DNA of 30,255 nt from Candidatus Curtissbacteria bacterium RIFCSPLOWO2_01_FULL_37_9 (GTDB lineage Bacteria > Patescibacteriota > Microgenomatia > Curtissbacterales > GWA2-41-24). Below are positions 12,329 to 28,138 of the stretch, one piece after another. The notes below the pieces were generated by a model. It was not told the DNA's origin and did no database searches. It saw nothing but the letters and a program-made list of their open reading frames with translations. Position 1 is the first letter of the stretch. Every line of letters starts with the position of its first letter. Both the position numbers and the translations under genes were made by a program. The DNA is taken from the NCBI GenBank assembly GCA_001776425.1, contig MFBN01000014.1:11596-41850 (forward strand), in the 5' to 3' direction.

Positions 12329-13135
12329 TTAAAAGGGCGCAAACAAATCTGGTCTGCCAAGAGGTACTGATGGTGCAGGTGCCACCGGCGGCCCGGAAGG
12401 TATATTAGCTATTTCAGTTTTAATTTTCGCTAATAAATTTTTTTCCGATTCTGTTAATTCTGTTACCGGTGCTTCAATATTTGAAAGCTGAGTAATCATC
12501 GGTTTCCAATATGCCTCGATTTGTAAAGATACCCTGATTTGTGAGGAACCGGAAGTAGATAAGGAAGACCCTATACTTAGATCCTCAACAGCAACTATTC
12601 TGGGCATTGATCGCAATATTTTTAAAAACTGCATAAACGAATTATAATCACCGCTGATTGAAGCTTTTAGTTGAACCTTAGTATTAATTAAATCCGCACC
12701 TTTACTTTCAGGTGAAGAGGCTGTCGGAGCAGGTTGAGGTTTGTTTTCTACTGTACCGCTTAATGATCCCGGGGATACTTCCAGACGATTTAAAAGCACT
12801 CCGGAATTGGCTGCTGCCGATTCAATTTGCTCTATAAAAGTAAAAACTCCTTTATCGGATGGTAACATTTGTTCGCTGGATGCCAGTTGCTCCTCAAGCT
12901 CAATCTGGTCAAGATTTCGCAGTACATTTACTTTACTATCCATGGATTGAACACGGGTAGTCAATTCAGCAGTGGCGGTTTTTAATCTTAAAACTTCTGT
13001 AAATTTTGGCCAGACTATTAATAAAAGAATTAACATTGAAACAGCCAATGAACCCACAGGTACGGCTAAATTGGTAACTTTTTCAAAAATTAAACTGTTT
13101 TGAATTTTCAATACTGATAAGGCCGGTAATTGCAT
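12329..13135 (-). CDS. pilO: Type IV pilus alignment protein, PilO-like
   Basis: N-terminal TM helix, coiled coil, LP..K motif, ISGDYNSFMQFLKILRSMPRIVAVEDL; follows pilM and pilN. Confidence 0.7.
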   Translation of the reverse strand: MQLPALSVLKIQNSLIFEKVTNLAVPVGSLAVSMLILLLIVWPKFTEVLRLKTATAELTTRVQSMDSKVNVLRNLDQIELEEQLASSEQMLPSDKGVFTFIEQIESAAANSGVLLNRLEVSPGSLSGTVENKPQPAPTASSPESKGADLINTKVQLKASISGDYNSFMQFLKILRSMPRIVAVEDLSIGSSLSTSGSSQIRVSLQIEAYWKPMITQLSNIEAPVTELTESEKNLLAKIKTEIANIPSGPPVAPAPSVPLGRPDLFAPF

Positions 13136-13137
13136 AC

Positions 13138-13680
13138 TTATTTTTTATTAACTAACTGGGCCGTAATATTAAATGTAAACAGCCCCAGTTCATTAGAACT
13201 TAATGAATCAATAGAAACCTGGTTAAAATATTTAGCTCCTTCGGAGGATAATAGGGAAGATACAAGACCGGCTACATCTGCAGAGGACTGGGCTCTGGCG
13301 GATAATGAAACTTTACCTGATGTAAATTTAGCATCGGTAAAATAAACCCCCTGAGGTATTAACTTTGAAATATTTTCGAAAATATCAGCAAAATCTGTTC
13401 TTGAAGACACCAACTTTTCTGCTGAAGATGCTTTATCCTTAACAACAACAATTAATTCCTCCGTAGATTTTAAAGATTCAATCTGCCCTGAACTGGCTTC
13501 AACAGAAGCAACCAACTTAGACCTTTTTGAGGAAAATGAGCTAAATAAAACAAGAATTATAAAAGTAACAATACCTGTAATAACCAAGACAACTACCGAT
13601 ACAATCGAAATCCGCTTTACCAGAATTGAGAAATTCTCCTGATCTCTTGCCGCAACCGGTAATAAATTTATGTCCGCCAT
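13138..13680 (-). CDS. pilN: Type IV pilus alignment protein, PilN-like
   Basis: N-terminal INLLP (PilM-binding motif), TM helix, ISKLIPQGVYFT, SARAQSSADVA. Confidence 0.8.
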   Translation of the reverse strand: MADINLLPVAARDQENFSILVKRISIVSVVVLVITGIVTFIILVLFSSFSSKRSKLVASVEASSGQIESLKSTEELIVVVKDKASSAEKLVSSRTDFADIFENISKLIPQGVYFTDAKFTSGKVSLSARAQSSADVAGLVSSLLSSEGAKYFNQVSIDSLSSNELGLFTFNITAQLVNKK

Positions 13681-13706
13681 ATACTTTAATTTTAGCGTAG
13701 CAAATA

Positions 13707-14723
13707 TTAGCTGTTAAGAGCAAGACCGGTTGCCACGCTGAATATACCTCCCTTACCAACCATTTGTAAGATTACTCCTTCTTTAACAAAATCTGCCCAG
13801 GCATCACCAAGTGAAACTTCTAAATTGGTCCTTTGGGTTAAAAACTGGGATATTCCCGGCAAAAAAGCGCCACCACCACATATAACTAGTCTGGAGACAG
13901 GCAGATCTTTGGTATGCATATGAGAAAATTCAATTGCTTTTTGGATCTCTCCAATTAAAACATCCAATACCGGCTTTAGGACATCGGCTACTTTTCCGGA
14001 GAGTTTATCCTCTAAAATACCGTATGTTTGTTTATATTGTTCAGCCTGATTTTGGGGAAGATTAAATTCCGTCATAATTGCTTTTGTTAAATTCACTCCG
14101 CCTGTTGCTACCGATCTTGTAAACAATACATTTCCGTTATCAGCAATCACCAAATCCGTAGAAATTGCACCCATAGAAACTATTATTGTCGGTGGTTCAC
14201 CGACTTTAGTCAGGGCTCTGGCTAATGCCATTGATTCGGTTTCCATGGCAACTATCTTCAGTCCGGCATTTTTAACGATATTAATATATTTAGAAATCAT
14301 TCTTTTGGGGGCTGCTACCAAAAGAACGTCCATTTTTTCTGAAGTGGATTCAGGTCTTGAAATAATTTTATACTGCAAATTCACATCTTTTATAGGTAAT
14401 GGGATATATTGTTCAGCTTCCCAGCTGACAGCAGCAGACAATTCTTTATCTGTTAAATTGGGAAGCTGAATTAATCTTGTAACTACCTGCGATTCGATTA
14501 AAGATACAATGCAGTTTTGGAGGGTAATATTGGATTTGGCAACACAGGCCTTGACGCTTTCGGAAACTTTCATTAAATCAACCGGAGCCTCGCTCATAGG
14601 ACCGCCTAAAGGAGTTTGAAAGCTGGCAGCTGCTTCTAATATTTTTCTATTGCCACTTTTTTTAACTTTTACTGCTTTTATAAATGACCTTCCTATGTCA
14701 AGGCCGAAGAATTGGGCAGACAT
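13707..14723 (-). CDS. pilM: Type IV pilus assembly protein PilM (actin-like)
   Basis: FGLDIG...IKAV, WEAEQYIPLP, DVLLVAAPK, METESMALARA, VICGGGA, SVATGLAL. Confidence 0.92.
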   Translation of the reverse strand: MSAQFFGLDIGRSFIKAVKVKKSGNRKILEAAASFQTPLGGPMSEAPVDLMKVSESVKACVAKSNITLQNCIVSLIESQVVTRLIQLPNLTDKELSAAVSWEAEQYIPLPIKDVNLQYKIISRPESTSEKMDVLLVAAPKRMISKYINIVKNAGLKIVAMETESMALARALTKVGEPPTIIVSMGAISTDLVIADNGNVLFTRSVATGGVNLTKAIMTEFNLPQNQAEQYKQTYGILEDKLSGKVADVLKPVLDVLIGEIQKAIEFSHMHTKDLPVSRLVICGGGAFLPGISQFLTQRTNLEVSLGDAWADFVKEGVILQMVGKGGIFSVATGLALNS

Positions 14724-14728
14724 TAATA

Positions 14729-15022
14729 TTATTGGGAAGGAGAAATATCTTCTCCTGTGTTTTCCAAATTATCTGGTTCCGTAATTGGTTGAGCCGAGTC
14801 AGTAGCAGGAGAAGATATTGGTGTGGGTGTTGTAACAATAACCTGTTTTGGAACTCTGTTTCTAACCGTATTTTGGATAGCAGATTGATCAATCGTGCGC
14901 GAACCAGAATCAACTTGTGGATCTTCCTGCGTTTTAGAACCCAAAAAGATTAAAAGCAAAGCAGGAATAATTATTGCTGCTGCACCCACAAAAGTTAAAA
15001 TTAATTTAGTCTGTTTATTCAT
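14729..15022 (-). CDS. Small bitopic membrane protein with Pro/Thr/Ser-rich tail, function unknown
   Basis: N-terminal TM (LILTFVGAAAIIIPALLLIFLG), then low-complexity VTTPTPISSPATDSAQP. Its start overlaps the pilX-like stop by 1 nt (TAATG). Confidence 0.7.
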   Translation of the reverse strand: MNKQTKLILTFVGAAAIIIPALLLIFLGSKTQEDPQVDSGSRTIDQSAIQNTVRNRVPKQVIVTTPTPISSPATDSAQPITEPDNLENTGEDISPSQ

Positions 15023-15822
15023 TATTTAACAATATCTCCCTCTGAATACAAAACATAGTCAAATACAGCCGGTAGTTGAGGCAGGGCAGTTTTTCTAACT
15101 TGAACCCTTCTAGTAACCCCTATTTCGGAAGTTGCCTCGGAATTAATATCATAAGTTTGAACAGGCAATTCACAACCTGCACTAATACAAGAAACTTTTA
15201 CAGTTGCCTTATTCCATAACGGCTTGATTCTTAAAAGAACAGGATCAGGAGTAGTTATAATCCATTCTCCACATTTGTCAAAATTAGTACTAGGAGAACT
15301 ACAACTTGGAGTAGGGTTTCCAATTGGTACAAGTTCATCAGCCCTACCTAAAATACCTTGCCAGAATATTCTTGACTGTCCATAATTACCTCCACCAGAA
15401 TTATTTACAAGTGTCAGTTCGACAGACGCTATATTTGCTTTTTCTAGTGGATCACTGCTTTTCGACCAATCAATTTGTAAAGTAAAAGGACTAGTCATAT
15501 TCAAAAGATCAATTTGGCCGATTTCGCCGGGCTGAATCGTTGATTCATAAATCTGGCTTGATTTAACAGTAACATTTGCGGTAATGTCACCAACTGTAAC
15601 CGGAAATGTCTGACTGCCCGTTGCCGGAGCTACTGTAGTTAACCTTGACAATATATCCTCCACGCCGCCTTCAGCTGCTGTAAATGCCCTTTGGGATTGT
15701 TCTGTTTGAGTAGAAATACGTAAATTAGTGATATTTCGAGAAGCCACCGAAAGCCCGACAGCCAAAGCTACGACTACTATCAATAGAACGATAATTAAAA
15801 TCTGTCCTCGCCTTTTTTTCAT
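15022..15822 (-). CDS. Minor pilin, PilX-like
   Basis: Prepilin-like RRG|QILIIVLLIV lacking Glu5, plus QRAFTAAEGGVE typical of the PilX N-terminal domain. Confidence 0.75.
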   Translation of the reverse strand: MKKRRGQILIIVLLIVVVALAVGLSVASRNITNLRISTQTEQSQRAFTAAEGGVEDILSRLTTVAPATGSQTFPVTVGDITANVTVKSSQIYESTIQPGEIGQIDLLNMTSPFTLQIDWSKSSDPLEKANIASVELTLVNNSGGGNYGQSRIFWQGILGRADELVPIGNPTPSCSSPSTNFDKCGEWIITTPDPVLLRIKPLWNKATVKVSCISAGCELPVQTYDINSEATSEIGVTRRVQVRKTALPQLPAVFDYVLYSEGDIVK

Positions 15823-15833
15823 CCTTTAATTCC

Positions 15834-15863
15834 AGTTTAGGTATATTCGGATCCGGTTGTCAA
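15834..15863 (-). promoter_or_regulatory. Possible internal promoter upstream of the pilX-like gene
   Basis: Minus strand TTGACA (15863-15858), N18, TAAACT (15839-15834), in a 70-nt intergenic gap. Confidence 0.4.
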
Positions 15864-15892
15864 TTGCCTTAATTGATTTAAACCAAAAAAGT

Positions 15893-16468
15893 CTAGTATT
15901 GCCGCAAAGAAATAGTTGTATTAAATTTAACGTTTGCCAGAAAATCTTCTCTGGAAGGTGCGTCTTTACCCTGATTTAATATTAATTCGATATTAATAAA
16001 CGGGGGTGTTTCGGAACTGGATGGCTTAACCACATCAAGTTTTGAACAATCTACATCAACTCCGGTTATAGGATCCTGATTAGTTAAACTTGTATATTCC
16101 GGGGCTGAATCTGTTCTTATGGCTATATAGGCATTTAGTTCTGCAGAAGCACTAAAACAAGCAATATGCAAAGGTTCATTATCATACCGGTTTAGTACAA
16201 TATATTTTGCGTCATTTCCATCAGGTGAATCTGCATCCGTAGAATTTCTAATTTGCCGTTCCAAAGTATCAATTACCAATTGCCCGTTTTGCTTAACCTC
16301 ATTAGTAACGCTGGCTTTATTATTTCCCCTTAGAATAGATGTTAAAAAAAGCAGGGTAATACCAATTGTCAGGGATAAAAGCCCTAAAACTACCAGAAAT
16401 TCAACCAATGTAAAACCCTTCAAGTTCTTAGATTCAAATTCTGGGATTTGATTTTTAATAAAATGCAT
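15893..16468 (-). CDS. Minor pilin, PilW-like (prepilin N-methylation motif)
   Basis: KG|FTLVEFLVVLG class III signal peptide followed by an amphipathic helix. Confidence 0.8.
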   Translation of the reverse strand: MHFIKNQIPEFESKNLKGFTLVEFLVVLGLLSLTIGITLLFLTSILRGNNKASVTNEVKQNGQLVIDTLERQIRNSTDADSPDGNDAKYIVLNRYDNEPLHIACFSASAELNAYIAIRTDSAPEYTSLTNQDPITGVDVDCSKLDVVKPSSSETPPFINIELILNQGKDAPSREDFLANVKFNTTISLRQY

Positions 16469-16486
16469 TATTTTTTAAATATACTA

Positions 16487-16969
16487 TTAGATATAATCCC
16501 ACTTAGTCAAAATAGTCTGGTCTGTAACATTTTGCTTGCCTGCTGAATCTTCCCAAGTTATGGATACGGTTATTATTTTTTTATTTGCATTCGAGTTATC
16601 CGGTTCAATAATTAAATAGCGGTTGAAAAGCGTGCTATTTAAAGTAATCGCTTCTCCAACCGGGCATGGAGGTGCAACCGAATTTAAACTCCAATTCAGA
16701 GGATCCGCGTCAGTTGCATTTAATATGTAACAACTCCCCTCACTGAGCGCGTTAAAGCCTCTATGATCCCTATAAATTCTAATTTGTTCTAAAGTTTCCT
16801 GTGCAAGTTTAGTGGCTTGTGAATTGTTGCGGGCGCTTCTGGATGTTCTTTGAGTTATCAGGCTTGTCGTAACCAGAGAAATTGCCAAAAGTACCACAAC
16901 TCCCAGACCAATTACCACTTCGATCATTGACTGGCCGCGCAGTTTGTATTTAGTAATTTTAATCATCAT
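16487..16969 (-). CDS. Minor pilin, PilV-like
   Basis: RG|QSMIEVVIGLG with Glu5, QATKLAQETLEQIR, KKIITVSITW. Confidence 0.75.
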   Translation of the reverse strand: MMIKITKYKLRGQSMIEVVIGLGVVVLLAISLVTTSLITQRTSRSARNNSQATKLAQETLEQIRIYRDHRGFNALSEGSCYILNATDADPLNWSLNSVAPPCPVGEAITLNSTLFNRYLIIEPDNSNANKKIITVSITWEDSAGKQNVTDQTILTKWDYI

Positions 16970-16973
16970 TCAT

Positions 16974-17699
16974 TTATAATTTCTTTTCCGAAACTTCTCC
17001 TGTTGAAGACATGATCACTTGATACGTACTTCCGCCATGACTGCTAATTTCGATAATTAAAGCACCGGTATACCGTGGATCGATGATTAAACCACCATCA
17101 TCGAGAAAATTCGGAGGTATGGATTGTCCATCATGCAATGAAGGCACATTAGTTAATGGTCGAAATAAAATTGATGCAGAAGTTCCTAAACCTACGTTAA
17201 TACCGCTAATAATTATGCCTTTAGGTAAAGCTACAATTTTTTCGCCTATGATTATTTCAGTCCAAGGAGGTTGAGTAGCATCTATACAATCCCCGGCTAT
17301 AGTATAAGTATCACTGTCTTTTACAAAAGAAACATACCAACCGATTAAAGATGACGCTGATATAGATGTCTGACATTTACCGTCAATTTTGTCTCCGGAA
17401 AGGGCTCTATTTTGGGCAAGCCTGATTTCACTCGTTATAGTCTGGGCAGCGTTTTTAAGCCGCTGATTGCGCTCAAAACTGACATATGATGCGGTAATCA
17501 GGGAAGTAGTTAGGCCAAATATAGAAATAACAATTAAAAGCTCAATTAATGTGAAGCCTGGAAGACGAACATTAATAAGCTTTCTTCTTAGGGTGAATTC
17601 ACATTGACAAGTGACATGTAGCAAGTTACATTTGACAAATTCTTTTAATTTGTTGAATGTTAAATGTTTATAGCTAACAGTTCGCAAAACGCGGGGCAT
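16974..17699 (-). CDS. Minor pilin, FimT/GspH-like, with a long 48-aa leader
   Basis: PG|FTLIELLIVISIFG at residues 47-62; LKNAAQTITSEIRLAQNRAL helix. No closer in-frame ATG/GTG/TTG was found. Confidence 0.75.
   Translation of the reverse strand: MPRVLRTVSYKHLTFNKLKEFVKCNLLHVTCQCEFTLRRKLINVRLPGFTLIELLIVISIFGLTTSLITASYVSFERNQRLKNAAQTITSEIRLAQNRALSGDKIDGKCQTSISASSLIGWYVSFVKDSDTYTIAGDCIDATQPPWTEIIIGEKIVALPKGIIISGINVGLGTSASILFRPLTNVPSLHDGQSIPPNFLDDGGLIIDPRYTGALIIEISSHGGSTYQVIMSSTGEVSEKKL
17603..17685. repeat. Degenerate heptamer tandem repeats inside the prepilin leader
   Basis: ATTGACA AGTGACA TGTAGCA AGTTACA TTTGACA (17603-17637) and TGTTGAA TGTTAAA TGTTTAT AGCTAAC AGTTCGC (17651-17685). Confidence 0.65.
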
Positions 17700-17705
17700 T
17701 ACTTA

Positions 17706-18473
17706 TTAATATAACATTAAATACCAGTCCAAAATCGGCTTTGCCCAATAAAGACTGATTAAAAGCCCGCTTATTAAAAAAGGGGCAAAAGGAATTGTCT
17801 GACCGAATTTTTTATAGCCAAACAAAATAAGGACTAAAGAAACAAGAGCTCCGAGCAAAAAAGCCAAAAATAAAGACAATAAGGTTGCTTTAATACCTAA
17901 TACCATACCAATTAAAAAACCCAAAATAATATCGCCCTCACCCATTCCACGGCCGCGGGTTGCAACTACAATAATCAAAAAAAATAAAGCGGATAAAAAT
18001 GCGGCTGCTGTGTGTTGCGCAAATAAACTAGGGGAGAATGAAAAAAAATTATAAAACAAACTGATAAATGAGGCTATAAAGACAAATGTTGTAGGAATAA
18101 GCGAAAATTTAATATCAACTACTGCTACAACTATCACGACAGAAATCAAAAAAAGGTAATAAGCCAAAGTCGCCAAACTTAAATTATTTTCCGAAACCAG
18201 AATTAGAAAAGTTAGCAAAAATAAAATTGCGGTTACGGTTTCCACAAGAGGGTATTGCCATGATATTGGTTTTTTACAATAGCGGCATTTTGCTCCCAAC
18301 ACTGCGAAACTGACAATGGGTATCAAGTCGAAAGTTGAAAGAGTTGCCCGGCAGTGATCACAGTACGACCTGCCCAAAATTGACTCTCGCCTGGTTGTGC
18401 GGTCTATGACAACATTTAAAAAACTGCCCACCGCCGTTCCCAAAATAAATGACAACAATAGATAAAGAATCAC
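17706..18473 (-). CDS. pilD: Prepilin peptidase/N-methyltransferase (A24A)
   Basis: GSFLNVVIDR, RSYCDHC...CRYC zinc motifs, YPLVE, catalytic Asp in VDIK and GMGEGD, IPFAPFL. Confidence 0.95.
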   Translation of the reverse strand: MILYLLLSFILGTAVGSFLNVVIDRTTRRESILGRSYCDHCRATLSTFDLIPIVSFAVLGAKCRYCKKPISWQYPLVETVTAILFLLTFLILVSENNLSLATLAYYLFLISVVIVVAVVDIKFSLIPTTFVFIASFISLFYNFFSFSPSLFAQHTAAAFLSALFFLIIVVATRGRGMGEGDIILGFLIGMVLGIKATLLSLFLAFLLGALVSLVLILFGYKKFGQTIPFAPFLISGLLISLYWAKPILDWYLMLY

Positions 18474-18492
18474 AATAAAAGTCTATCAACCG

Positions 18493-18537
18493 CTAGTTAC
18501 TAGATGCTAGACCCTAAACCCTAGACCCTAATCCCTA
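18493..18537. repeat. Heptamer tandem repeats starting at the pilin stop codon
   Basis: Plus strand CTAGTTA CTAGATG CTAGACC CTAAACC CTAGACC CTAATCC CTA; on the coding strand TAG-NNNN units beginning with the pilin TAG. Confidence 0.75.
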
Positions 18538-19017
18538 TGGGGTACAACCGCCTTCGGTAATTTCTCCAACGCTTACACTTGCAGAACGCCAGCACCACAC
18601 CCAATCGCCAACTCCGGAAGTCGCATCTTCTAAAGCGGCATAAAGGGCAACCTCGGAATTGTTTCCTGTTGAGCTTATTAAATACTGATATTCGTTTCCT
18701 ACAGGATCAAAAGGAATAATTTTCAAATCGCCGGACGCTCTTAGGGAAGTCAATCCGCTGATAGAAGCGGGGCCGCTGGGGACAGGGAATAGACTATTTG
18801 CCGAAAAGTAGGAATTAAGAGCATTAGCAATTTGCCCTATATCGCTTTTTCTTGTAGCATCCCTTGCCTGTTTCTGACGCTTTGCCGGATTAATTGCCAT
18901 CATAATTACTACCGCCAAAATTGCCAAAATCCCCATCACGATCAGAAGTTCGATAAGAGTAAACCCCCTGAGGGTAATCTTTAATTTTAAATTTTTAATT
19001 TTCATTGAATTTGTCAA
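18535..19017 (-). CDS. Type IV pilin paralog (likely true start is ATG at 19005)
   Basis: RG|FTLIELLIVMGILAIL, ARDATRKSDIGQIA helix, C-terminal WCW...CTP Cys pair. Confidence 0.9.
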   Translation of the reverse strand: MTNSMKIKNLKLKITLRGFTLIELLIVMGILAILAVVIMMAINPAKRQKQARDATRKSDIGQIANALNSYFSANSLFPVPSGPASISGLTSLRASGDLKIIPFDPVGNEYQYLISSTGNNSEVALYAALEDATSGVGDWVWCWRSASVSVGEITEGGCTP

Positions 19018-19108
19018 TAAATTTTCTAAAAATATTTTCTTATCAAAATATAATTTTTAAACACTTAGATTTCATTTTAAATTTCAAATTGAAAATTGAA
19101 TATTTTTG
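18977..19108. repeat. AT-rich heptamer tracts in the pilin leader and upstream region
   Basis: ATCTTTA ATTTTAA ATTTTTA ATTTTCA (18977-19004) and ATTTTAA ATTTCAA ATTGAAA ATTGAAT ATTTTTG (19074-19108). Confidence 0.55.
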
Positions 19109-19138
19109 CGGAGGGGCATTATTTCTAATATACCATTT

Positions 19139-19167
19139 TTGTTTAATCGTTTTTACTCTGTTAGACT
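19139..19167 (+). promoter_or_regulatory. Putative promoter of the YfhO-like gene
   Basis: TTGTTT (19139-19144), N17, TAGACT (19162-19167), with extended TGn (19159-19160); ATG at 19177. Confidence 0.5.
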
Positions 19168-19176
19168 AGTTTTTAA

Positions 19177-21372
19177 ATGGTCAAAAAAATACTTACTTAT
19201 TATTGGCCGTTCCTTGTAATACTCATTGTAATCTTCGCCTTCTTCGCCAGACTTTTTATTCCTCCGTCAATATTTGTAACCCCAGATTTTGGCCGAAGCG
19301 ATGCTCTTCATTCAAATCTTACCGAAAAACTAATCCTGCAAAAGAGCCTTAAAAGCCTGAATGTTCCTCTCTGGGAAGATAGTATTGGTCAGGGTTATCC
19401 AATTTTTGCTGAGGGAATAATGGGTTTTTTTTACTTTCCTAATCTAATAATCTTTGGTCTATTACCATTTAATTTTGCCATACCTACAATGTATGCCTTT
19501 ACCTTTTTGACATCATCTTTTTCAATGTATTACCTCATAAAAAAACTAAAACTCGGCATTCTAGCTGCCACAATCTCCGGCATATCTTTTGCCTTCTCCG
19601 CCTCGATGATCCTTCACGTCCAACATTATAACTTCATCCAATCAGCATCACTTCTGCCACTTCTAATCTTATGGCTTTTAAATTTTCTTGAAAAGAAAAA
19701 CGCGACAAATGCCATAATTTGCTCGATTATCTTCTCTCAGGTAATTCTCGCAGGTTTTGTTCAGATCTTTGCATATATTACGATTATTTTTTTCGTCTTT
19801 ACAATCTTCTTAACATATCTAAGAGAAAAACAAAGTCTTCAAAAAGCCGTCACTTCATACATAGCTATAGTTTTGTTCTCCATAACACTTTCTGCAATCC
19901 AAATTCTTCCTTCATACGAACTCACCAGATTATCAACCAGAAACTCTGGCGTTGACACCAAAAGCCTACTTGAAGCTTTTCCGCTGTCTCCAAAAAACTA
20001 TTTCACTTTCTTAAATCCCTTTATCTTGGGCAAAACCTCAGATGGTTCCTATAACTCCACCCAATGGTCGAAGTACGGCGTTTATTGGGAAAACACAAGT
20101 TACATCGGTTTAATACCATTTGTCTTCTATTTTATCGGTCTATACTTTTTGTTTTTTAAACGTAAAAATCACATACTTTTGGCTGTTTTTGCAGCAACAA
20201 TAATCGCTATTTTGTTATCTCTTGGCAAATATTCACCCCTCCACATAGCCTATTCTTTCCCACCGTTAAATTACTTTAGAGTCCCTGCCAGATTTATTCT
20301 GCTTGTTCAGTTTTTAACACTAATAACAGCTGCCTATGGAATTAAATTCTTCGTGGATAAGATACCAAAACGAAAAACCCCAATCCTTAAAATCATACTT
20401 GTCCTATTCATGACAGTAAACCTTTACTTCTATTGGTGGAATTACAACCCAATAGGCAAAACTAAAAATTGGTTAATGCCTCCAGAGCTGGCAAACTCGA
20501 TAGAAAGAGGGGAAAACTGGCGTTTATTTTCTATTGACTCAAAACAATGGAATAGTGTATTTACAACCAAAGGCTGGCGAAATCAAGACGAAAACTATTA
20601 CTTCTTCAGAAATTCTCTTGATCAAAATTTGAATTTACTTTACGATATCAGCCAATTTTCTCACTTTGAAACCCTGCCAACAAGAAGATACGATCTACAA
20701 AACTTGATACTTAAAAATTCAATAACAATAAAAGACGAAAAAATAAATATAGCCCAAAAAGCCAAAAATATTCTAAAACAATCAAATGTCAGATATTTAA
20801 TTTCTCCTTACAAAATCGCATCAGAAGGATTCTCGCAAATCAAAAGTGTTAACAAAGACAACTTCATATTCTATTTATACGAACTAGAAAACCCCAACAG
20901 TCGTGCTAGTCTGTATTACGATTACAAATCGGTAAGAACCACTGGTCAATATACAAGTCTACTCGGAGAAATTGACCCCGTCAAAACCGTTCTTATAGAG
21001 AAAGTAGAAAACCTCGAACTGGAAAATGGAATGGGCTTGATATCAACAATTAGAATAGAAAATGGTTATCAATCTTTTAAAATTACCACAGACAAGCCGG
21101 CTATATTCGTAGTTTCAAACTCACCATATCCAGGATGGGAAGCAATAATTGACAGCAAAAAAACCACTATTTATCCCGCAAACATTAATTCTCAAGCAAT
21201 AATCGTACCACAAGGAGAACACCGTGTAGCATTCGAATATAAACCGAAAAGCTTTATAATTGGCCTGATAACTAGCTCCGTGTCTTATATCTTTGCCCTC
21301 GTCTGGCTAGCAAGAAGAAAGTTAAAGTTCCTCAACAGGTTTATCAATACCTTTCTTCCGACTCATCTGTGA
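19177..21372 (+). CDS. YfhO-family multi-pass membrane protein (predicted GT-C glycosyltransferase)
   Basis: Many TM segments; PLWEDSIGQGYP, FRVPARF; C-terminal VSNSPYPGWEAIID...PANIN...IVPQGEHRVAFEYKP plus a final TM helix, typical of YfhO. Confidence 0.8.
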   Translation: MVKKILTYYWPFLVILIVIFAFFARLFIPPSIFVTPDFGRSDALHSNLTEKLILQKSLKSLNVPLWEDSIGQGYPIFAEGIMGFFYFPNLIIFGLLPFNFAIPTMYAFTFLTSSFSMYYLIKKLKLGILAATISGISFAFSASMILHVQHYNFIQSASLLPLLILWLLNFLEKKNATNAIICSIIFSQVILAGFVQIFAYITIIFFVFTIFLTYLREKQSLQKAVTSYIAIVLFSITLSAIQILPSYELTRLSTRNSGVDTKSLLEAFPLSPKNYFTFLNPFILGKTSDGSYNSTQWSKYGVYWENTSYIGLIPFVFYFIGLYFLFFKRKNHILLAVFAATIIAILLSLGKYSPLHIAYSFPPLNYFRVPARFILLVQFLTLITAAYGIKFFVDKIPKRKTPILKIILVLFMTVNLYFYWWNYNPIGKTKNWLMPPELANSIERGENWRLFSIDSKQWNSVFTTKGWRNQDENYYFFRNSLDQNLNLLYDISQFSHFETLPTRRYDLQNLILKNSITIKDEKINIAQKAKNILKQSNVRYLISPYKIASEGFSQIKSVNKDNFIFYLYELENPNSRASLYYDYKSVRTTGQYTSLLGEIDPVKTVLIEKVENLELENGMGLISTIRIENGYQSFKITTDKPAIFVVSNSPYPGWEAIIDSKKTTIYPANINSQAIIVPQGEHRVAFEYKPKSFIIGLITSSVSYIFALVWLARRKLKFLNRFINTFLPTHL

Positions 21373-23382
21373 TCTTTCAAAATATTCTTTTGCTTTATCG
21401 CTGTCGTCAAAACAAACGCTATAAACTTGACCCAAGCCTTCCCACGCCTGCCAATAAGATTCATCTGCCTTAACAATTGCTAAAAATAAATCCCTCGATT
21501 TCTCACAGTCTTTCTTCTCTAAGTAATAAATCGCCAGTCCAAACATAGAAACACGATTTTCGGGTAAAATCTCTAAACTATTTTCAAAATATTCCTTGGA
21601 TTTATCAACATTACCGTGCTTTAAAAGCGCAAAAGCGTTGTCGGCAAAAACACCAGAATAAGTCGCTTTAATGTCATCCTCGAAAAAATTAAGGTATCTG
21701 TTTTTGACAACATCAAGTCTAAAATTAAGCTTGTCCAAACTCTGCAAAACTCTCCTGGAGGTTTCAGAATCGCCTGGTAAATCATCACGCCTGTAAAGCC
21801 TTTTGAGCATTCCTTGCTGAATCCATACATAATCAGCAGGAACTGAAATTGCCGAATAAGAATATATTGGAAATCTGTCATAGTTTATATCGATTAATTT
21901 GAAAACCGTATCAACATATTCTGTCCTGCCTTTTGTTAAAAAGTTCTCTGGAAAAAAAATTTCGGAATAAAACCTCTCAAGTTGTTTTCTGTAACTTTCG
22001 TGCTTCAACCTTCCGGTCAAGATAATTGGGGATTTATTGTTTATCCCATCAATGTAATATACATATTGAGTGTTAAAAGTAATTGTATCTCCTTGTAAAA
22101 AAATTATTCCAGGGGGATCGGCAGCAGTAAGAATATCCTTACCTAAAATTCCACCAACCTTATAATCCGAAAGGTCTGTTTTTGGCCAGTTTGTAATGAA
22201 TAAAAAGAAAGGGAAAATCAAAAATACAGAGGAAAAAAGCAACTTCAAAAAACTTATATTACCAAGATGCAATTTTTTCATTAAATTAAAAATAAAGTCA
22301 CGGATTCCAGCCATGCCAAAAAAAACGAATATCGCGAGGAACAAGTAGTTTATTAGCAAAAATCTTTCAGAAATACCCAAAAGAAGTGAGGTCAAAGGAG
22401 GGAAAGACGCGTACGCCAAAAAAAACGGGCCGCTAAAAAAAGCGCTAAGTAAAAAAAACCAGAACCATTCTCTTTTTTTTAAAAAAAGCCAAAAAATTCC
22501 CAACATAATCAAAATAACCCCAAAAACAGTAAAGTCAAAAAGAACCACTTTAAAGTACCAAAGAACTTGAACTAGTCGGGCAGGAGCAGAAAAACCAACA
22601 AGATCAGAAGAAGCAGTAAAAACCCCATAATCAGCCCTTGTAATCAGCTGCCAAAATCCCGAAAAATTTGAAGGGTCATCCCAATTAATGGGAGTTTTGC
22701 GTGAAGCGGCTATAAAAACGTAAAGATAAGGAACTATACCCAAAAGAAATAATCCAAACAACTTCAACAAATTTTTTAATTTTTCAAGTCTAAAGATCTT
22801 CAACCGAATAAATGCATATAAATAAGCCGGTACCAAAAGTAGAGAAGTATGATGGTGAAAAACCGCAAGACCAAAGAAAAACACACACAAATATAAGCTC
22901 TTTTTCCTATAAAAACTTGTAGAAATCCAAAAATAGTCAAACAAAAAAAACAAGGAGATAAGAAGTAAAATTATCATAAGTTGAAAAACCTCGGCAACGT
23001 GAGCATAAAACCAATACAAAGGTACAAAAGCCAAAACCAAAGAACCGGCAACCGATAAGATGAAATTCTTCAAAAGTCTAAATAGAAAAAAGCCCAAAAG
23101 CCCAACGCCAAATGCCATATAAACAGCCGAAACTAAGTTTGCCTTAAATGCAAAAGGGCCGATTGGTATTAATCTTGTTAAGATTGCACCAAGAAGGGTA
23201 TTTAGAGGATAACCTGGCGGATGAGGAACACCTGCAAAAAAATAAGAGAGGATAATGTCGCCGGAATCTCCACCATAAACGTCACTTGCTACACCTCGAA
23301 AATAAAGGATAAAAACTATAAAAGAAATAAGAACAATAGCAAACAATCCGTACTTTTCAACTGAATAGACAGATTTCCTCAC
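21322..23382 (-). CDS. DUF2723/TMEM260-like GT-C membrane glycosyltransferase with C-terminal TPRs
   Basis: GGDSGD...GVPHPPGYPLNTLLG hallmark, HHTSLLL, INWDDP, about 11 hydrophobic segments, then a soluble domain and TPR-like helices (YFENSLEILPEN, AWEGLGQVY). Overlaps the YfhO-like gene tail-to-tail by 51 nt. Confidence 0.82.
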   Translation of the reverse strand: MRKSVYSVEKYGLFAIVLISFIVFILYFRGVASDVYGGDSGDIILSYFFAGVPHPPGYPLNTLLGAILTRLIPIGPFAFKANLVSAVYMAFGVGLLGFFLFRLLKNFILSVAGSLVLAFVPLYWFYAHVAEVFQLMIILLLISLFFLFDYFWISTSFYRKKSLYLCVFFFGLAVFHHHTSLLLVPAYLYAFIRLKIFRLEKLKNLLKLFGLFLLGIVPYLYVFIAASRKTPINWDDPSNFSGFWQLITRADYGVFTASSDLVGFSAPARLVQVLWYFKVVLFDFTVFGVILIMLGIFWLFLKKREWFWFFLLSAFFSGPFFLAYASFPPLTSLLLGISERFLLINYLFLAIFVFFGMAGIRDFIFNLMKKLHLGNISFLKLLFSSVFLIFPFFLFITNWPKTDLSDYKVGGILGKDILTAADPPGIIFLQGDTITFNTQYVYYIDGINNKSPIILTGRLKHESYRKQLERFYSEIFFPENFLTKGRTEYVDTVFKLIDINYDRFPIYSYSAISVPADYVWIQQGMLKRLYRRDDLPGDSETSRRVLQSLDKLNFRLDVVKNRYLNFFEDDIKATYSGVFADNAFALLKHGNVDKSKEYFENSLEILPENRVSMFGLAIYYLEKKDCEKSRDLFLAIVKADESYWQAWEGLGQVYSVCFDDSDKAKEYFERSQMSRKKGIDKPVEEL

Positions 23383-23498
23383 TTACTTTAGAATAAGTTT
23401 TAAAAAAGGGTTTTGCCAAAAACAATTCGTTTCACCAAAAATGAGTACTACCAAACCTCAATCGTACTTAAAATTTCCCCGAATCCGCTAATCTTAGC

Positions 23499-23960
23499 TT
23501 ACGGCGTGCAACTACCTGATGTAATTTCTTGGGCTTTTCCAATTGCTGATTGCCAACACCATAGATAAGTACCTGTACTATCCGTAGTAGGATCTTCTAA
23601 TACATCGTAGATTGAAGCCTCACTTGAATCACTCTCAACCGAATATGAATATTCGCCACCTGTCGGATCAGTTGGAATTTGCTTCAGATCTTGAGTTACT
23701 GTCAAAGCTGCCAAGCCTCCAGGCGTACCGCTAGTACCAAGATAATCACCTTGCCCTGGTGTTGTGTAATATGCCTGCAGAGCCGTTGCTATCTGTCCTA
23801 TATCACTCTTGCGGGCAGCATCTCGTGCCTGTCTTTGTCTTTTTGCTGGGTTTACGGCAATCAAAACTGCGGCTGCTAAAATTCCCAAAATTGCAATAAC
23901 GATTAAAAGCTCAATTAGAGTAAAACCTTTGAAAAATTTCTTTTGGGCAGAATTAATCAC
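23499..23960 (-). CDS. pilA: Type IV pilin, probable major pilin
   Basis: GTG start, KG|FTLIELLIVIAILGILAA, ARDAARKSDIGQIA, C-terminal WCW...CTP; directly after pilC; perfect Shine-Dalgarno. Confidence 0.9.
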   Translation of the reverse strand: MINSAQKKFFKGFTLIELLIVIAILGILAAAVLIAVNPAKRQRQARDAARKSDIGQIATALQAYYTTPGQGDYLGTSGTPGGLAALTVTQDLKQIPTDPTGGEYSYSVESDSSEASIYDVLEDPTTDSTGTYLWCWQSAIGKAQEITSGSCTP

Positions 23961-23970
23961 TAAAAATTAC

Positions 23971-23980
23971 TCACCTCCTT
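23971..23980 (-). promoter_or_regulatory. Perfect Shine-Dalgarno AAGGAGGTGA of the probable major pilin
   Basis: Plus strand TCACCTCCTT, 10 nt upstream of the GTG at 23960. TTGACA (24049-24044), N17, TAATAC lies further upstream as a weak promoter candidate. Confidence 0.8.
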
Positions 23981-24060
23981 CCGATATTTACTAATTTAAT
24001 ATCAATGCTATCTAAAACCAGTATTAAGGAATATATATTTATTTGTCAAGCATTAAACAA

Positions 24061-25272
24061 CTAAAATGACGATGTCAGATTGTAAATCGGCAAAATAATC
24101 GAAAGCACTAAAATTCCTACACCCAGCCCCAAAAATACCAGAATCAAGGGCTCAAGAGCGGTTGTCAGGTTACGAATCGCAGTTTCACTTTCACCTTCAA
24201 AATAAATCGAAAGCCGCTGCAGCACTTCATCCATTTTACCGGTTTCCTCACCAACCCTGATCATTTGGGCAACAATCGGCGGAAAATCAGGATTAGCTGC
24301 TAGAGGCTGATATAAAGGAGTACCTCTTTCAACCCGGCCGATTGCAAAAAGTATTCCTTCTCTATAAGTAGGCGTTGCCAAAAGATCGGCAACAACCTTC
24401 AGGGCGGAAATAATCGGAATTCCGGTTGCAATTAAAAGTCCTAAAGTTCTGGTAAACTGGGCCAAAATTAAGGTTTTCCTGATTTTCCCCCAAATCGGCA
24501 AAATTAAAACAAGCCTTGAGATAATTTCTGCTCCTTTCTCTGTTTTGGAAAATACCCGTAAGGCATAACTTGCACCAAACCCCAAAAGAATCAAAAGCCA
24601 CCAGAAATTACGCATAAAATTAGACAAAAATATTAAAATTTTAGTCGGTAAGGGCAAATTGGCTCCGATTTCCGTATAAAGACTGGTTAATTTCGGGATC
24701 ACAAATATCATCATTACCGTAATCACAATAATCATAACCACGACCACGATAATCGGGTAAATAAAAGCGCCTTTTGTTTTTGATTTAAATTCTTTTTCCT
24801 TTTCCAGAGTATCTGCCAGCTTTATTAACACTTTATCCAAAACTCCTCCGGTCTCTCCGGCTTCGATTAGTTTTATATAGATAATATCAAACGCTCGAGG
24901 ATGCTTATGAAGAGCCTGAGACAGGGCCATTCCACCTTCGACATCGGCAACAACCTCTGCTAAGATATTAGCAAATTTCTGGTTTTTGGCCTGTTTTTCC
25001 AAAATTACCAAGGCATCTGTTAAGGGAAGACCGGCAGAGATCATGGTGGAAAGTTCCCTTGTAAAGTTAACAATCTCATTAACGGTTACTCCACCAATCT
25101 TAGGCAGGGCATTGATTAGAGGCAAACCAATCTTTTCCCGCTTTTTGATTTCTATTGGGATTAAACCTTCTTTTCTTAAAGATTCAACCAAAGTCTTTTC
25201 ATCAAAAACTTCAACTTCTCCGCTGAATTTTCTGGCGTTTTGATCCTTGGCAGTAAAACGGTAAAGGGCCAT
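24061..25272 (-). CDS. pilC: Type IV pilus platform protein PilC (T2SS F family)
   Basis: FTRELSTMISAGLPL, AGETGGVLDKVL, YPIIV, MIRVGEETGKMDEVL, ALEP, ILPIY. Confidence 0.96.
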   Translation of the reverse strand: MALYRFTAKDQNARKFSGEVEVFDEKTLVESLRKEGLIPIEIKKREKIGLPLINALPKIGGVTVNEIVNFTRELSTMISAGLPLTDALVILEKQAKNQKFANILAEVVADVEGGMALSQALHKHPRAFDIIYIKLIEAGETGGVLDKVLIKLADTLEKEKEFKSKTKGAFIYPIIVVVVMIIVITVMMIFVIPKLTSLYTEIGANLPLPTKILIFLSNFMRNFWWLLILLGFGASYALRVFSKTEKGAEIISRLVLILPIWGKIRKTLILAQFTRTLGLLIATGIPIISALKVVADLLATPTYREGILFAIGRVERGTPLYQPLAANPDFPPIVAQMIRVGEETGKMDEVLQRLSIYFEGESETAIRNLTTALEPLILVFLGLGVGILVLSIILPIYNLTSSF

Positions 25273-25288
25273 TAATGTATGCTAAATA

Positions 25289-26359
25289 CTATTTTTCAAA
25301 ATCGCTTTGTCCGGCAACCAATCGGTCCAGTTCCTCCGGTCTTAGGCTATAACTGCGGGCAACATCCAAAGATATACTTCCGGATCTAACTAAAAAGGCT
25401 AAAGAGGCATCCATTAAAATCATGCCTGCAGAACCGGAAGTTTGAATAATATTGTCAATCATATGAGTTTTACCTTCACGAATCGCAGTCTGTACAGCAC
25501 CGCTTTGCAGTAATATCTCAACAGCAGGTACACGCCCTCCGCCAATCGCCGGAACAAGTCTTTGAGAAATTATGCCGGCAATACTGGATGCCAGCTGCAT
25601 TCTAACCTGAACCTGCTGATTTTCCGGAAAAACGTCTATAATCCGGTCAATTGACTGGGCCGCAGAATTGGTATGAAGGGTTGCAAAAACCAAGTGCCCT
25701 GTTTCGGCAATAGTAATAGCAGAAGCAATTGTTTCGTAATCACGCATTTCGCCAACCAAGACCACATCCGGATCCTCACGAAGCGCGGATCTTAACGCCA
25801 CTTCCCAAGAATGGGTATCAAGGTGCATTTCTCTTTGCGAAACCAGTCCTTTACCTTTGGGATAAACATATTCTATAGGATCTTCTATCGTTAAAATATG
25901 AACCGGCTTTGTTTGATTAATCTGATTAATTATTGAAGCAATTGTAGTTGATTTTCCGTGACCGGTTGGCCCGGTAACCAAGATAAAACCCTGGCGCATT
26001 TTAACAAAGTCATGGCAAATTCTGGGTAAGTTTAAATCTTCTATAGTTTTAATAAAAGCGGGAATCAGCCGCAAAGCCGCAGAAAGATAGCCTTTCTGAA
26101 AATAAGCATTAACCCTGAATCTGGCAACATCTCCCAAGGCAAAGGAAAAATCAATTTCCTTATTCACCATTAAAGTTTCTTTCTGTTCCGTAGATAAAAG
26201 TTCGAAAACCAAACTTTCGGCATCCTCCGGAGTTAAGGGTCCGGAAGAAATAGGCATTAATTGACCGTCTATTCTGATCACAGCCGGTGAACCAACAATT
26301 AAATGCAGATCCGATGCTTCTTTTTTAACAACTATTTCTAAAAAATCCTGTATAGACAT
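25289..26359 (-). CDS. pilT: Type IV pilus retraction ATPase PilT
   Basis: ASDLHL, RFRVNAY, Walker A GPTGHGKSTT, EDPIE, ALREDPDVVLVGEMRD, TGHLVFATLHT, AIREGK. Confidence 0.95.
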   Translation of the reverse strand: MSIQDFLEIVVKKEASDLHLIVGSPAVIRIDGQLMPISSGPLTPEDAESLVFELLSTEQKETLMVNKEIDFSFALGDVARFRVNAYFQKGYLSAALRLIPAFIKTIEDLNLPRICHDFVKMRQGFILVTGPTGHGKSTTIASIINQINQTKPVHILTIEDPIEYVYPKGKGLVSQREMHLDTHSWEVALRSALREDPDVVLVGEMRDYETIASAITIAETGHLVFATLHTNSAAQSIDRIIDVFPENQQVQVRMQLASSIAGIISQRLVPAIGGGRVPAVEILLQSGAVQTAIREGKTHMIDNIIQTSGSAGMILMDASLAFLVRSGSISLDVARSYSLRPEELDRLVAGQSDFEK

Positions 26360-26389
26360 TACTTAATCTTTAGTTTAATTTAAAAAACT

Positions 26390-28138
26390 CTAATCTTCAG
26401 CCACCCTCAAGACTTCCTCAATAGAGGAAATACCCTCAATTACTTTTAAAAAACCGTCCTGCTTCATGGTAATCATCCCTTCTTCTTTTGCTTGTTCCCC
26501 GATAGCCTGACTTGTTTCTCTGGCCAGTATCATTCTGGTTATTTTTTCCGAAACAACCAAAACTTCATAAATGCCGATCCTTCCCAAATAACCGGTATTA
26601 TTACATTCTTTACAACCTTTACCGCTATAAAGCTGCGGGGGTTTTTTGGGATCAAAACTGTATAATTTTCCAAGTGTTTCTTTTATCTGGTTTAAAACTA
26701 TCTCGGAAACCTCTTTGGGCACTTTGCAGGTATTGCATATTTTCCTGACGACTCTTTGGCCGACAATACAGGTAACAGTTGATGCAATTAGGTAAGGTTC
26801 GGCATGCATGTCCAACAGTCTTGGCAGGGCACCGGTAGCATTGTTGGTATGAATCGTAGAAAATACCAAATGCCCTGTTAAGGAAGCCTGAATTGCCAAA
26901 TCAGTTGTTTCGGTATCGCGGATTTCTCCTACCATTATAATATTAGGGTCTTGCCTTAAAAATGAACGCAATCCGGAGGCGAATGTTAAACCGGCCTGTG
27001 TATTAATTTGAACTTGATTAACACCGGGAACCTGATATTCCACAGGGTCTTCCAAAGTCATAATATTAACTTTAGTTGAATTTAATTTGGAAAGAATGGA
27101 ATAAAGCGAAGTTGTTTTTCCAGAGCCTGTCGGACCGCAAATTAAGATAATTCCATGCGGTCTGAGAATATTTTGTTCAAGATTATGAAGCGCATTGCCT
27201 CTTAAACCTAATTCAGGAAGCGTTGGCACTCCTCCTGTTTTTTTAAGAAGCCTCATAACAACTTTTTCCCCGTAAGCGGTAGGCATTGTCGAAAGTCTAA
27301 GATCTATTTCCTCCTGGCCGACTTTAAAGTTAAATCTGGCATCCTGGGGAAGACGCTTTTCGTCAATTTTCATATTTCCCAATATTTTAATTCGCGAAAC
27401 AATAGCATCATGAATTCTTCTGGGTAAAATCAGCTTTTCGTGCAAAATACCGTCGATTCTATAGCGAATTCTGGTTTCGTTTTCCAATGGTTCAATATGA
27501 ATATCCGAAGCGCGTACTTTAATACCATATTCAAGTAAAGTTGAAACTATTCTGGCAACCGGAGCTTCACCAATCACCCCACTAACACTGCTTTCGGGAA
27601 TAAAAGCGGATGCTATGGACGGTGCTGCTTCTTTTAAGGCTTCGCCAACCTCAAAAGAAAGACCGCGGGTATATTGTTCGGCAATTGCTCTGGTTATTGA
27701 ATCTGCGGTAGCAATATACGGTCTAACACTAAAACCGGATTTTTTCTCGATAAACTCAAGAACCTGTAAATCCAAAGGATCTACCATTGCAACAGATAAA
27801 GTTTCGCCTTCTTTGGCAATTGGAATTACAATAAACCTTTTAGCAACTTCTTCCGGTAGAAAAGCTAATACTTCCGGTGAAATCGGCTGCTGGTCCGGAG
27901 CAACGTAAGGTACGCCGATAATGTCCGCTTTAGCCTGGGCCAGCTGTTCGTTATTAACCCAGCTCATTTGGGATAAGATTTTCTCAGCACTTTCCTGCCT
28001 TCTTTTGGCTTCGTTTTTAATGAAATTAAGCTGCTGGGGAGTCAATACTCCGCGTGAGGCTAAAATATCCTCCAGAGAAGATGCCTTTTTGTCGCTGTCT
28101 TCTGCTTTTGACTTTATTATTTGGGCAGTTATAGTCAT
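26390..28138 (-). CDS. pilB: Type IV pilus extension ATPase PilB (GspE family)
   Basis: ASDIHIEP, RYRIDG, RLPQD, GPTGSGKTT, LEDPVE, LRQDPNIIMVGEIRD, CNTC...CKEC zinc site, GYLGRIGIYE. Confidence 0.95.
   Translation of the reverse strand: MTITAQIIKSKAEDSDKKASSLEDILASRGVLTPQQLNFIKNEAKRRQESAEKILSQMSWVNNEQLAQAKADIIGVPYVAPDQQPISPEVLAFLPEEVAKRFIVIPIAKEGETLSVAMVDPLDLQVLEFIEKKSGFSVRPYIATADSITRAIAEQYTRGLSFEVGEALKEAAPSIASAFIPESSVSGVIGEAPVARIVSTLLEYGIKVRASDIHIEPLENETRIRYRIDGILHEKLILPRRIHDAIVSRIKILGNMKIDEKRLPQDARFNFKVGQEEIDLRLSTMPTAYGEKVVMRLLKKTGGVPTLPELGLRGNALHNLEQNILRPHGIILICGPTGSGKTTSLYSILSKLNSTKVNIMTLEDPVEYQVPGVNQVQINTQAGLTFASGLRSFLRQDPNIIMVGEIRDTETTDLAIQASLTGHLVFSTIHTNNATGALPRLLDMHAEPYLIASTVTCIVGQRVVRKICNTCKVPKEVSEIVLNQIKETLGKLYSFDPKKPPQLYSGKGCKECNNTGYLGRIGIYEVLVVSEKITRMILARETSQAIGEQAKEEGMITMKQDGFLKVIEGISSIEEVLRVAED

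Follow-up and report, generated by a model that had tools for sequence, protein, structure and literature searches.

Why does a type IV pilus locus hold two glycosyltransferase genes between its genes for PilC and PilD? The question is raised by a 30,255-nucleotide stretch of DNA, called the window here, on contig C14 of a Candidatus Curtissbacteria genome (728 kb in 58 contigs, 77% complete). This ultrasmall groundwater bacterium belongs to the Microgenomates, within the Candidate Phyla Radiation (CPR, or Patescibacteria), whose members depend on their type IV pili both for locating a host and for keeping hold of it. The pilus locus of the window is complete and occupies positions 12329-28138, on the minus strand throughout except for the YfhO-like gene. 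Its gene order is PilB-PilT-PilC-pilinA-[TMEM260-like GT-C glycosyltransferase with tetratricopeptide repeats (TPR)]-[YfhO-like GT-C, convergent]-pilinB-PilD-minor pilins-PilM/N/O (Table 1). An initial annotation had described the part between pilC and pilD as a pilin, a DUF2723-type gene, a YfhO-type gene on the opposite strand and a second pilin, and had taken it for a pilus glycosylation cassette. All these elements were found where it had placed them. We consider that the locus probably has a pilin O-glycosylation module built into it, in which the pilin would be the acceptor. The linkage, the donor genes and the enzyme families of the original interpretation held up in the analysis, while its novelty turned out to be less than implied and the second pilin not to be conserved.

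The TMEM260-like protein matched the DUF2723 family (PF11028) with 68.5 bits, for a curated cut-off of 24.2, over profile positions 1-172 of 179, and TPR models of Pfam matched it too. It was aligned by phmmer with human TMEM260 (PDB 9rql) over residues 30-480 (E=3.4e-37), and a profile built from 17 orthologues matched the human protein (PDB 9rql/9rqm/9rqn) with E=5.6e-74. In the pairwise alignment, residues D39, H54, R249, Y252, R340 and D432 correspond to human D52, H67, R264, Y267, R355 and D441. Among the 17 orthologues, which are 28-80% identical to the window protein, D39, H54, R249, Y252 and D432 are invariant and R340 is present in at least 90%. In human TMEM260, D52, H67, R264, Y267 and D441 are essential, the R355A mutant keeps about 20% of the activity, and D441, which lies in the luminal alpha/beta domain, is the catalytic base (bioRxiv 10.64898/2026.03.17.711096). 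That the D52A mutant is inactive was already known earlier (PMC10214176).

Further evidence came from structure prediction. The AlphaFold model of the TMEM260-like protein (predicted local distance difference test score, pLDDT, 86; predicted template modelling score 0.85) begins with a transmembrane core that ends near residue 403, continues with an alpha/beta region (residues 404-560) and closes with TPR helices (566-676). Its fold is of the GT-C type: VIA gave Z scores of 24-26 to ALG12, Pmt1-Pmt2 and ArnT (22-26 when Pmt4, AglB and PglB are counted), and Foldseek agreed. The likeness to TMEM260 itself comes from the sequence comparison, the fold searches by Foldseek and VIA having compared other GT-C structures. 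In the C-terminal domain, C626 and C657 are invariant and lie about one TPR repeat apart; a disulfide between them would fit an extracytoplasmic location.

The YfhO-like protein matched PF09586 with 52.2 bits (cut-off 28.5), the best stretch covering profile positions 83-386 of 835, and its C-terminal end matched too. None of the NCBIfam models, including those of the PgfS pathway, matched this protein, and a profile of the YfhO alignment found no match among PDB sequences. Its model (pLDDT 89.7) also has a GT-C fold, with AftD, STT3/PglB, DPY19 and ArnT as top Foldseek matches. Two acidic residues directly follow the first transmembrane helix, D42, which is invariant, and D37, present in at least 90% of the orthologues; the loop that holds them is predicted to be the first extracytoplasmic one. 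Hidden Markov models and predicted structures thus agreed with the first assignment of the two genes to the DUF2723 and YfhO families and to the GT-C enzymes, both proteins scoring above the Pfam cut-offs and both models having the expected fold.

The argument for a role connected with the pilus rests mostly on gene position. The initial annotation would have been contradicted by an absence of linkage between these genes and pilins in related genomes, and we surveyed 52 homologue loci in other genomes (18 from close relatives, 28 from the class level and 6 from outside the class). The TMEM260-like gene was inside a type IV pilus locus in 46 of the 52. The genomes with such a linkage belong to the same family, to the same class and to two families of other classes, and the identity to the window protein goes from 80% down to 25%. 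Among 40 close relatives searched, 18 had a full-length orthologue, always among pilus genes, and 16 of these also had a convergent YfhO gene; the order PilC - pilin - TMEM260-like - YfhO - PilD was plain wherever the contig was long enough. An even sample of 151 genomes of the class contained 34 with a match at E<=1e-30. The 28 loci newly fetched from this sample comprised 23 linked to pilus genes, 3 on contigs too short to tell and 2 unlinked. Six matches outside the class were found in a sample of 301 genomes of the phylum; five of them, from two families, showed the order PilC - pilin - TMEM260-like - PilD, without YfhO. The orthologues of PilT and PilB in relatives (54-86% identity) also kept their position. 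Because the arrangement recurs in 46 other genomes, it is more than chance.

An upstream prepilin on the same strand was found at 36 loci, and the spacer that separates it from the TMEM260-like gene was at most 281 bp in 29 of them; the gaps of 1.4-6.8 kb at the other seven are filled by extra genes. Of the 47 sequences linked to pilus genes, 43 grouped in a single clade of the maximum-likelihood tree (support 92/89); this clade follows taxonomy and contains no unlinked paralogue, and the pilus-linked genes may have a single origin. The unlinked sequences include a second copy from the genome studied here (G000:C16:3839-5902, locus L110; PF11028 5e-32), which also has a TPR domain, lies away from pilus genes and groups with the unlinked paralogues. 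Tandem arrays were also encountered. Two YfhO-like and two TMEM260-like genes stand in tandem at locus L108 (G114:C2, 969-10034), with no pilus genes near, and five TMEM260-like paralogues follow one another in a genome of the class-level sample, at L052 and L060 (G031:C2:130630-140935), where no pilus genes were found within the short flanks around two of them. Some genes of the relatives are split, namely PilD in G018 (L064:13815-14586), YfhO in G026 (L077:6872-9110) and G062 (L084:1788-3843), and the TMEM260-like gene in G016 (L074:8998-11155); these may be frameshifts, assembly errors or decay.

Eight genomes that lack the orthologue still have the same pilus locus. PilC, the pilin or pilins and PilD are directly adjacent in six of them, and PilC abuts PilD with no pilin in between in one. 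This presence and absence across relatives indicates that the pair is a cassette gained or lost at the junction between pilin and PilD. In the eighth, G028, the space from the pilin to PilD is taken by a 570-residue PMT_2 GT-C whose TPR domain is strong (L113:14844-16556), so a different family of GT-C with TPR can occupy the same slot. This gene looks like a non-orthologous replacement.

In the pilus loci that we examined, YfhO was present only alongside the TMEM260-like gene, never alone. Such a nested distribution fits a downstream role in extending or decorating a glycan, without proving it. Since streptococcal YfhO-type enzymes glycosylate Ser/Thr residues of proteins directly, with two of them in one pathway, a second priming activity is equally possible. 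In relatives, YfhO is always convergent with its partner, and the 3' ends of the two genes overlap in most of the approximately 37 loci that hold both (e.g. L063:8926-8976 and L089:9880-9986). The overlap is 51 nt in the window and reaches about 140 nt in other families. It leaves no space for terminators and may couple or oppose the transcription of the two genes.

The spacers of the locus were also inspected. No terminator-like site was found in the 116 bp that separate pilinA from the TMEM260-like gene, in agreement with the earlier statement that a strong terminator is missing there, and this spacer is predicted to be unstructured (fold z = +1.37). Promoter-like matches are indeed present upstream of the YfhO-like gene, for which a promoter of its own had been suggested; these are consensus matches only and are no evidence of function.

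The two pilins are 50% identical (E=2e-51). The initial annotation counted 25 Ser+Thr in the last 88 residues of pilinA and 19 in the last 89 residues of pilinB, and our recount gave exactly the same numbers. Past residue 50, the Ser+Thr fraction is 0.27 in pilinA and 0.22 in pilinB, to be compared with a mean of 0.119 (standard deviation 0.032, 99th percentile 0.245) in the proteome of this genome. Because Ser/Thr/Gly-rich globular domains are common in pilins generally, this richness says little by itself. In almost every relative, pilinA comes directly after PilC. It contains conserved Ser/Thr residues in the motifs YYTTPG (at the end of the N-terminal helix), EDPT[ST]G and CWQS[TS][ST]G, as well as a C-terminal Cys pair; one may speculate that these Ser/Thr residues are the glycosylation sites. 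Among the close relatives fetched, orthologues of pilinB were found in G012, G018 and G001 only, with a weaker pilin at this position in G025. The block of two GT-C genes between paralogous pilins, to which the initial annotation drew attention, is thus real in the window, but the sandwich is not conserved: the conserved core is pilin / TMEM260-like / (YfhO) / PilD. Two more prepilin-like open reading frames (ORFs) of the genome lie on another contig, outside the main pilus locus (G000:C35:3445-3969 and 4089-4700).

Table 1. Features of the pilus locus, with positions in the window, and of one protein recurring in the pilus loci of relatives, with positions in those loci
Feature	Position	Strand	Basis
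PilB ATPase	26390-28138	-	ORF; position kept in relatives
PilT ATPase	25289-26359	-	ORF; position kept in relatives
PilC platform protein; upstream block boundary	24061-25272	-	PF00482 T2SSF 3e-61; orthologues flank cassette in relatives
PilinA, likely major prepilin and proposed sugar acceptor	23499-23960	-	N_methyl PF07963 2e-9
Spacer between pilinA and TMEM260-like gene, 116 bp	23383-23498	-	no terminator-like site
TMEM260-like (DUF2723) GT-C, 686 residues: about 11 transmembrane helices, alpha/beta domain, C-terminal TPR	21322-23382	-	PF11028 68.5 bits
51 nt shared by the convergent GT-C genes at their 3' ends	21322-21372	.	ORF coordinates
YfhO-like GT-C, 731 residues, convergent with TMEM260-like gene	19177-21372	+	PF09586 52.2 bits
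AT-rich divergent spacer between pilinB and YfhO-like gene, candidate promoters	19018-19176	.	sequence
PilinB, paralogous prepilin, variable among relatives	18535-19017	-	N_methyl PF07963 2e-6
PilD prepilin peptidase/methylase; downstream block boundary	17706-18473	-	PF06750 3e-29, PF01478 7e-11
Three minor pilins, PilX-like, PilM, PilN-like, PilO-like	12329-17699	-	Pfam on four ORFs, ORF list, synteny in relatives
Polytopic protein of about 435 residues (relatives)	L068:10876-12183, L069:8272-9570, L070:7658-8959, L072:13086-14390, L074:12963-15603		

Enzymes of this kind use a lipid-linked sugar, and the initial annotation had predicted that a GT2 polyprenol-phosphate sugar synthase and a flippase would be encoded elsewhere in the genome. 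Both were found. There are 12 GT2 hits in this genome, among which a full-length PgfS/ArnC/GtrB-like GT2 (C50:8988-9974; 4e-82 and 2e-51), and GtrA sequences occur as a GT2-GtrA fusion (C9:13905-15095) and as a separate GtrA-family ORF (C19:2969-3565). The genome also encodes several short GT2s resembling polyprenyl-phosphate hexose synthases and a ManC-like protein (2.8e-74). The exact sugars are not assignable, since all the scores are below the equivalog cut-offs. The GT-C (about 22), GT2 (12 hits) and Wzy_C (three) genes are mostly clustered (G000 contigs C8, C9, C34, C40, C46, C47, C48 and C50) and take up a very large share of a 728-kb genome.

In some relatives, the pilus locus is expanded by further sugar genes. 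The inserted genes encode PMT_2 GT-Cs, a UDP-GlcNAc 2-epimerase, methyltransferases, an ArnC/PgfS-like GT2 that adjoins YfhO (5e-62, full length), and a short GT2 resembling polyprenyl-phosphate sugar synthases, which is accompanied by a DegT sugar aminotransferase. Another protein that recurs in the pilus loci of relatives is polytopic, has about 435 residues and matched no Pfam or NCBIfam model. It is probably a GT87-like GT-C, a lead provided by ESM Atlas clusters that resemble GT87 mannosyltransferases, enzymes dependent on polyprenyl-phosphate-mannose (feature score 0.99, TM-score 0.89). Variable glycosylation islands are present beside pilin and flagellin genes in other bacteria, and the pattern of expansion seen here resembles them.

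These data suggest the following mechanism. A cytoplasmic GT2, the gene for which lies outside the pilus locus here but within it in some relatives, would load a sugar, which could be mannose or another hexose, onto polyprenyl phosphate. The lipid-linked sugar would then be flipped outward by a GtrA-type protein or by the GT-C enzyme itself. At the outer face of the membrane, the TMEM260-like enzyme would act on the membrane-anchored prepilin or pilin, the C-terminal domain of which has just been translocated. The donor would be bound in the membrane core by D39, H54, R249, Y252 and R340, an extended stretch of pilin would be held by the alpha/beta and TPR domains, and the sugar would be transferred to Ser/Thr with D432 acting as the base. 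The YfhO-like enzyme might subsequently extend or decorate the glycan, or glycosylate further sites; the initial proposal that one enzyme primes and the other extends is one way to distribute the work, and a role in phage evasion or host attachment is conceivable. Human TMEM260 works on extended, unfolded segments (bioRxiv 10.64898/2026.03.17.711096). By analogy, such a preference would suit a pilin domain that has just been translocated and is not yet folded.

Several observations weigh against this interpretation. The acceptor sequon of the human enzyme, G-P-x-x-G/A-G-G-x-x-T/S, had no strict match in any ORF of the genome, and a relaxed search gave 5 matches, none of them in pilins; this sequon characterises the specificity of the human enzyme, not membership of the family. 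The alignment with human TMEM260 also stops short of the TPR domain, which in the human protein carries the asparagine ladder. For both reasons, acceptor recognition is not inferable by homology. The type of pilin and its conserved Ser/Thr residues do not covary with the presence of the cassette: G003 and G013, which lack the cassette, retain the same pilin type, and at least two subfamilies are represented among the pilins adjacent to cassettes. TMEM260-like and YfhO genes are also found together where no pilus genes are near (L108), which indicates that the pair can serve other clients, and in Bacillus and Listeria the targets of YfhO proteins are teichoic acids instead of proteins (PMC12041528). 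When transcripts of pilinA and the TMEM260-like gene were looked for, their sequence was found only in DNA metagenome runs; one run listed as possible RNA contained short scraps of relatives and is probably DNA. Finally, GT-C genes are common in this genome (2 TMEM260-like, 4 YfhO-like and about 16 PMT_2). Their mere presence is therefore not special, but their conserved position is.

An alternative is that the two enzymes belong to a general system for O-glycosylation of extracytoplasmic proteins. It would then modify a large set of proteins at the cell surface, among them the minor pilins, the PilX-like protein and further proteins rich in Ser/Thr, and the pilin would be one client among others or not the main one. 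The streptococcal YfhO-type enzymes PgtC2 and PgfM1 do glycosylate many membrane-associated proteins (PMC12041528), the pilus locus holds several other pilin-like proteins, and the Ser/Thr sites of the pilin are equally conserved in relatives without the cassette. We nonetheless regard such a broad specificity as unlikely, because the TMEM260-like gene lies directly behind the major pilin gene, on the same strand, in most loci, because the subfamily is confined to pilus loci, and because human TMEM260 is a protein-specific enzyme rather than a general one (PMC10214176).

The acceptor could also be an envelope polymer, teichoic acid-like or polysaccharide, the position in the pilus locus being explained by a need for envelope glycosylation in the passage or function of the pilus. 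The transfer of sugars to teichoic acids by YfhO homologues of B. subtilis and Listeria (PMC12041528) would agree with this, as would the abundance of GT-C and GT2 genes in the genome, which presumably serve envelope glycans, and the structural matches to AftD and ArnT, which are lipid or polysaccharide transferases. Yet the sole characterised member of the TMEM260 family acts on a protein, and its acceptor-side catalytic base D441 is kept as D432; the TPR domains of other GT-Cs (TMEM260, TMTC and TfpW) go with protein acceptors; and there is no evident reason why polymer-modifying enzymes should stay between a pilin and PilD over such distances. This makes a polymer acceptor rather improbable. 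It is very improbable indeed that the two proteins are mainly structural or assembly components, for instance a TPR scaffold replacing proteins of the PilF/PilW type, with glycosyltransfer lost or secondary. TPR proteins such as PilF and PilW do take part in pilus biogenesis, and the TPR region of the TMEM260-like protein weakly matches type_IV_pilW and PilF structures. Against this, none of the six residues used in catalysis or donor binding varies, or hardly any does, among orthologues of 25-80% identity, which denotes selection for enzyme activity, and many relatives have complete pilus loci without these genes. A purely non-enzymatic scaffold was rejected on account of the invariant catalytic residues. 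En-bloc transfer of the PglL/TfpO type is unlikely at this locus, which contains no Wzy_C gene, the three genes of that kind being elsewhere in the genome. Modification of the pilin by an enzyme-catalysed transfer of sugar is the explanation that we consider most probable.

As to novelty, GT-C genes within the pilus loci of CPR were described nowhere in the literature that we searched on pili of CPR/Patescibacteria in connection with glycosylation or glycosyltransferases, as the initial annotation had supposed for the two-GT-C arrangement, and the term DUF2723 was met, in the literature searched, only in the 2023 paper on TMEM260. The claim has to be toned down, because pilin-adjacent GT-C enzymes with TPR were already known from TfpW. 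A study of Saccharibacteria pili predicted O-glycosylation sites and called for their confirmation (PMC11623550), and the papers on human TMEM260 mention bacterial members only as 'distant homologs in bacteria' (PMC10214176).

A wider idea can be put forward, tentatively and with slightly more doubt than belief. TMEM260-type O-glycosylation might be an old bacterial invention of which the original client was the type IV pilin. In Microgenomatia and neighbouring CPR, a relay of GT-Cs outside the membrane would then O-glycosylate the pili as a matter of routine, the TMEM260-like enzyme priming and YfhO-, GT87- or PMT_2-like enzymes extending, and the variable extra genes would form a 'pilus glycosylation island' that differs between strains and adjusts the recognition of hosts or the resistance to phages. 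If this were true, it would give a first function to the bacterial relatives of a human disease gene, for which the pilin is here proposed as the natural client. In any case, the conserved module embedded in the pilus locus names concrete candidate genes and residues for the modification of CPR pili. With a small bacterial enzyme-pilin pair, it could also become practicable to study how the enzyme affected in the human congenital disease works and recognises its acceptor. The variable sugar-pathway genes of the relatives suggest that the pilus surface is diverse at the strain level, which would be relevant to host range and phage defence.

How does the module compare with known systems? PglL and TfpO (PilO) of Neisseria and of P. 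aeruginosa group I perform pilin O-glycosylation at the outer face of the inner membrane, and tfpO directly follows pilA. These enzymes belong to the Wzy_C family and use preassembled glycans linked to undecaprenyl pyrophosphate, whereas the window enzymes are GT-Cs of the type that uses lipid-monophosphate-linked sugars. The pathway logic is the same as that of the streptococcal GtrB/PgtC2 and PgfS/PgfM1/PgfM2 systems, in which a GT2 makes an undecaprenyl phosphate-linked sugar and a GT-C of the YfhO family transfers it to Ser/Thr of an extracytoplasmic protein (PMC12041528). PgtC2 and PgfM1, which are YfhO-type enzymes, have been shown experimentally to be protein O-glycosyltransferases, and S. 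mutans has two YfhO-type GT-Cs in one pathway (PMC12041528); a PgfS-like GT2 is present in the genome studied here. In contrast, many proteins serve as acceptors in streptococci, through tails that are disordered and rich in Ser/Thr, and the genes show no linkage to pilus genes, whereas the YfhO-like enzyme is paired here with a TMEM260-like one.

The closest homologue is human TMEM260, a protein-specific O-mannosyltransferase, as shown experimentally (PMC10214176). The homology covers the GT-C core and reaches into the beginning of the luminal domain, and both proteins have the same predicted layout, with a transmembrane core followed by alpha/beta and TPR domains. They differ in that the sequon recognised by the human enzyme, located in IPT domains, is not in the genome, that a bacterial polyprenyl phosphate must take the place of dolichyl phosphate as the carrier, and that a pilin is the probable client.

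In function, the nearest analogue is TfpW of P. aeruginosa group IV (strains Pa5196 and PA7), a likeness that we draw from its published description (bioRxiv 10.1101/2020.04.19.049825). TfpW is a GT-C of 646 residues with 11 transmembrane helices; its loop 1 bears an acidic motif and its TPR domain is periplasmic. Its gene directly follows pilA, and the protein is the pilin D-arabinofuranosyltransferase, needed for pilin arabinosylation (same reference). It uses a lipid-phosphate-linked donor, and in some species the genes for making this donor are linked to the pilin gene. The present system differs by its monoderm-like CPR host, which is not a proteobacterium, by the TMEM260 family of the enzyme, by the convergent YfhO-type partner and by the GT87-like and PMT_2 additions of some relatives. 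What TfpW and the TMEM260-like enzyme have in common is a gene directly downstream of the major pilin, a length of about 650-690 residues, a cytoplasmic N-terminus followed by about 11 transmembrane helices, a first outer loop with an acidic motif and, at the C-terminus, a large outer TPR domain; ArnT, the best structural template for TfpW, is also among the matches of the TMEM260-like model.

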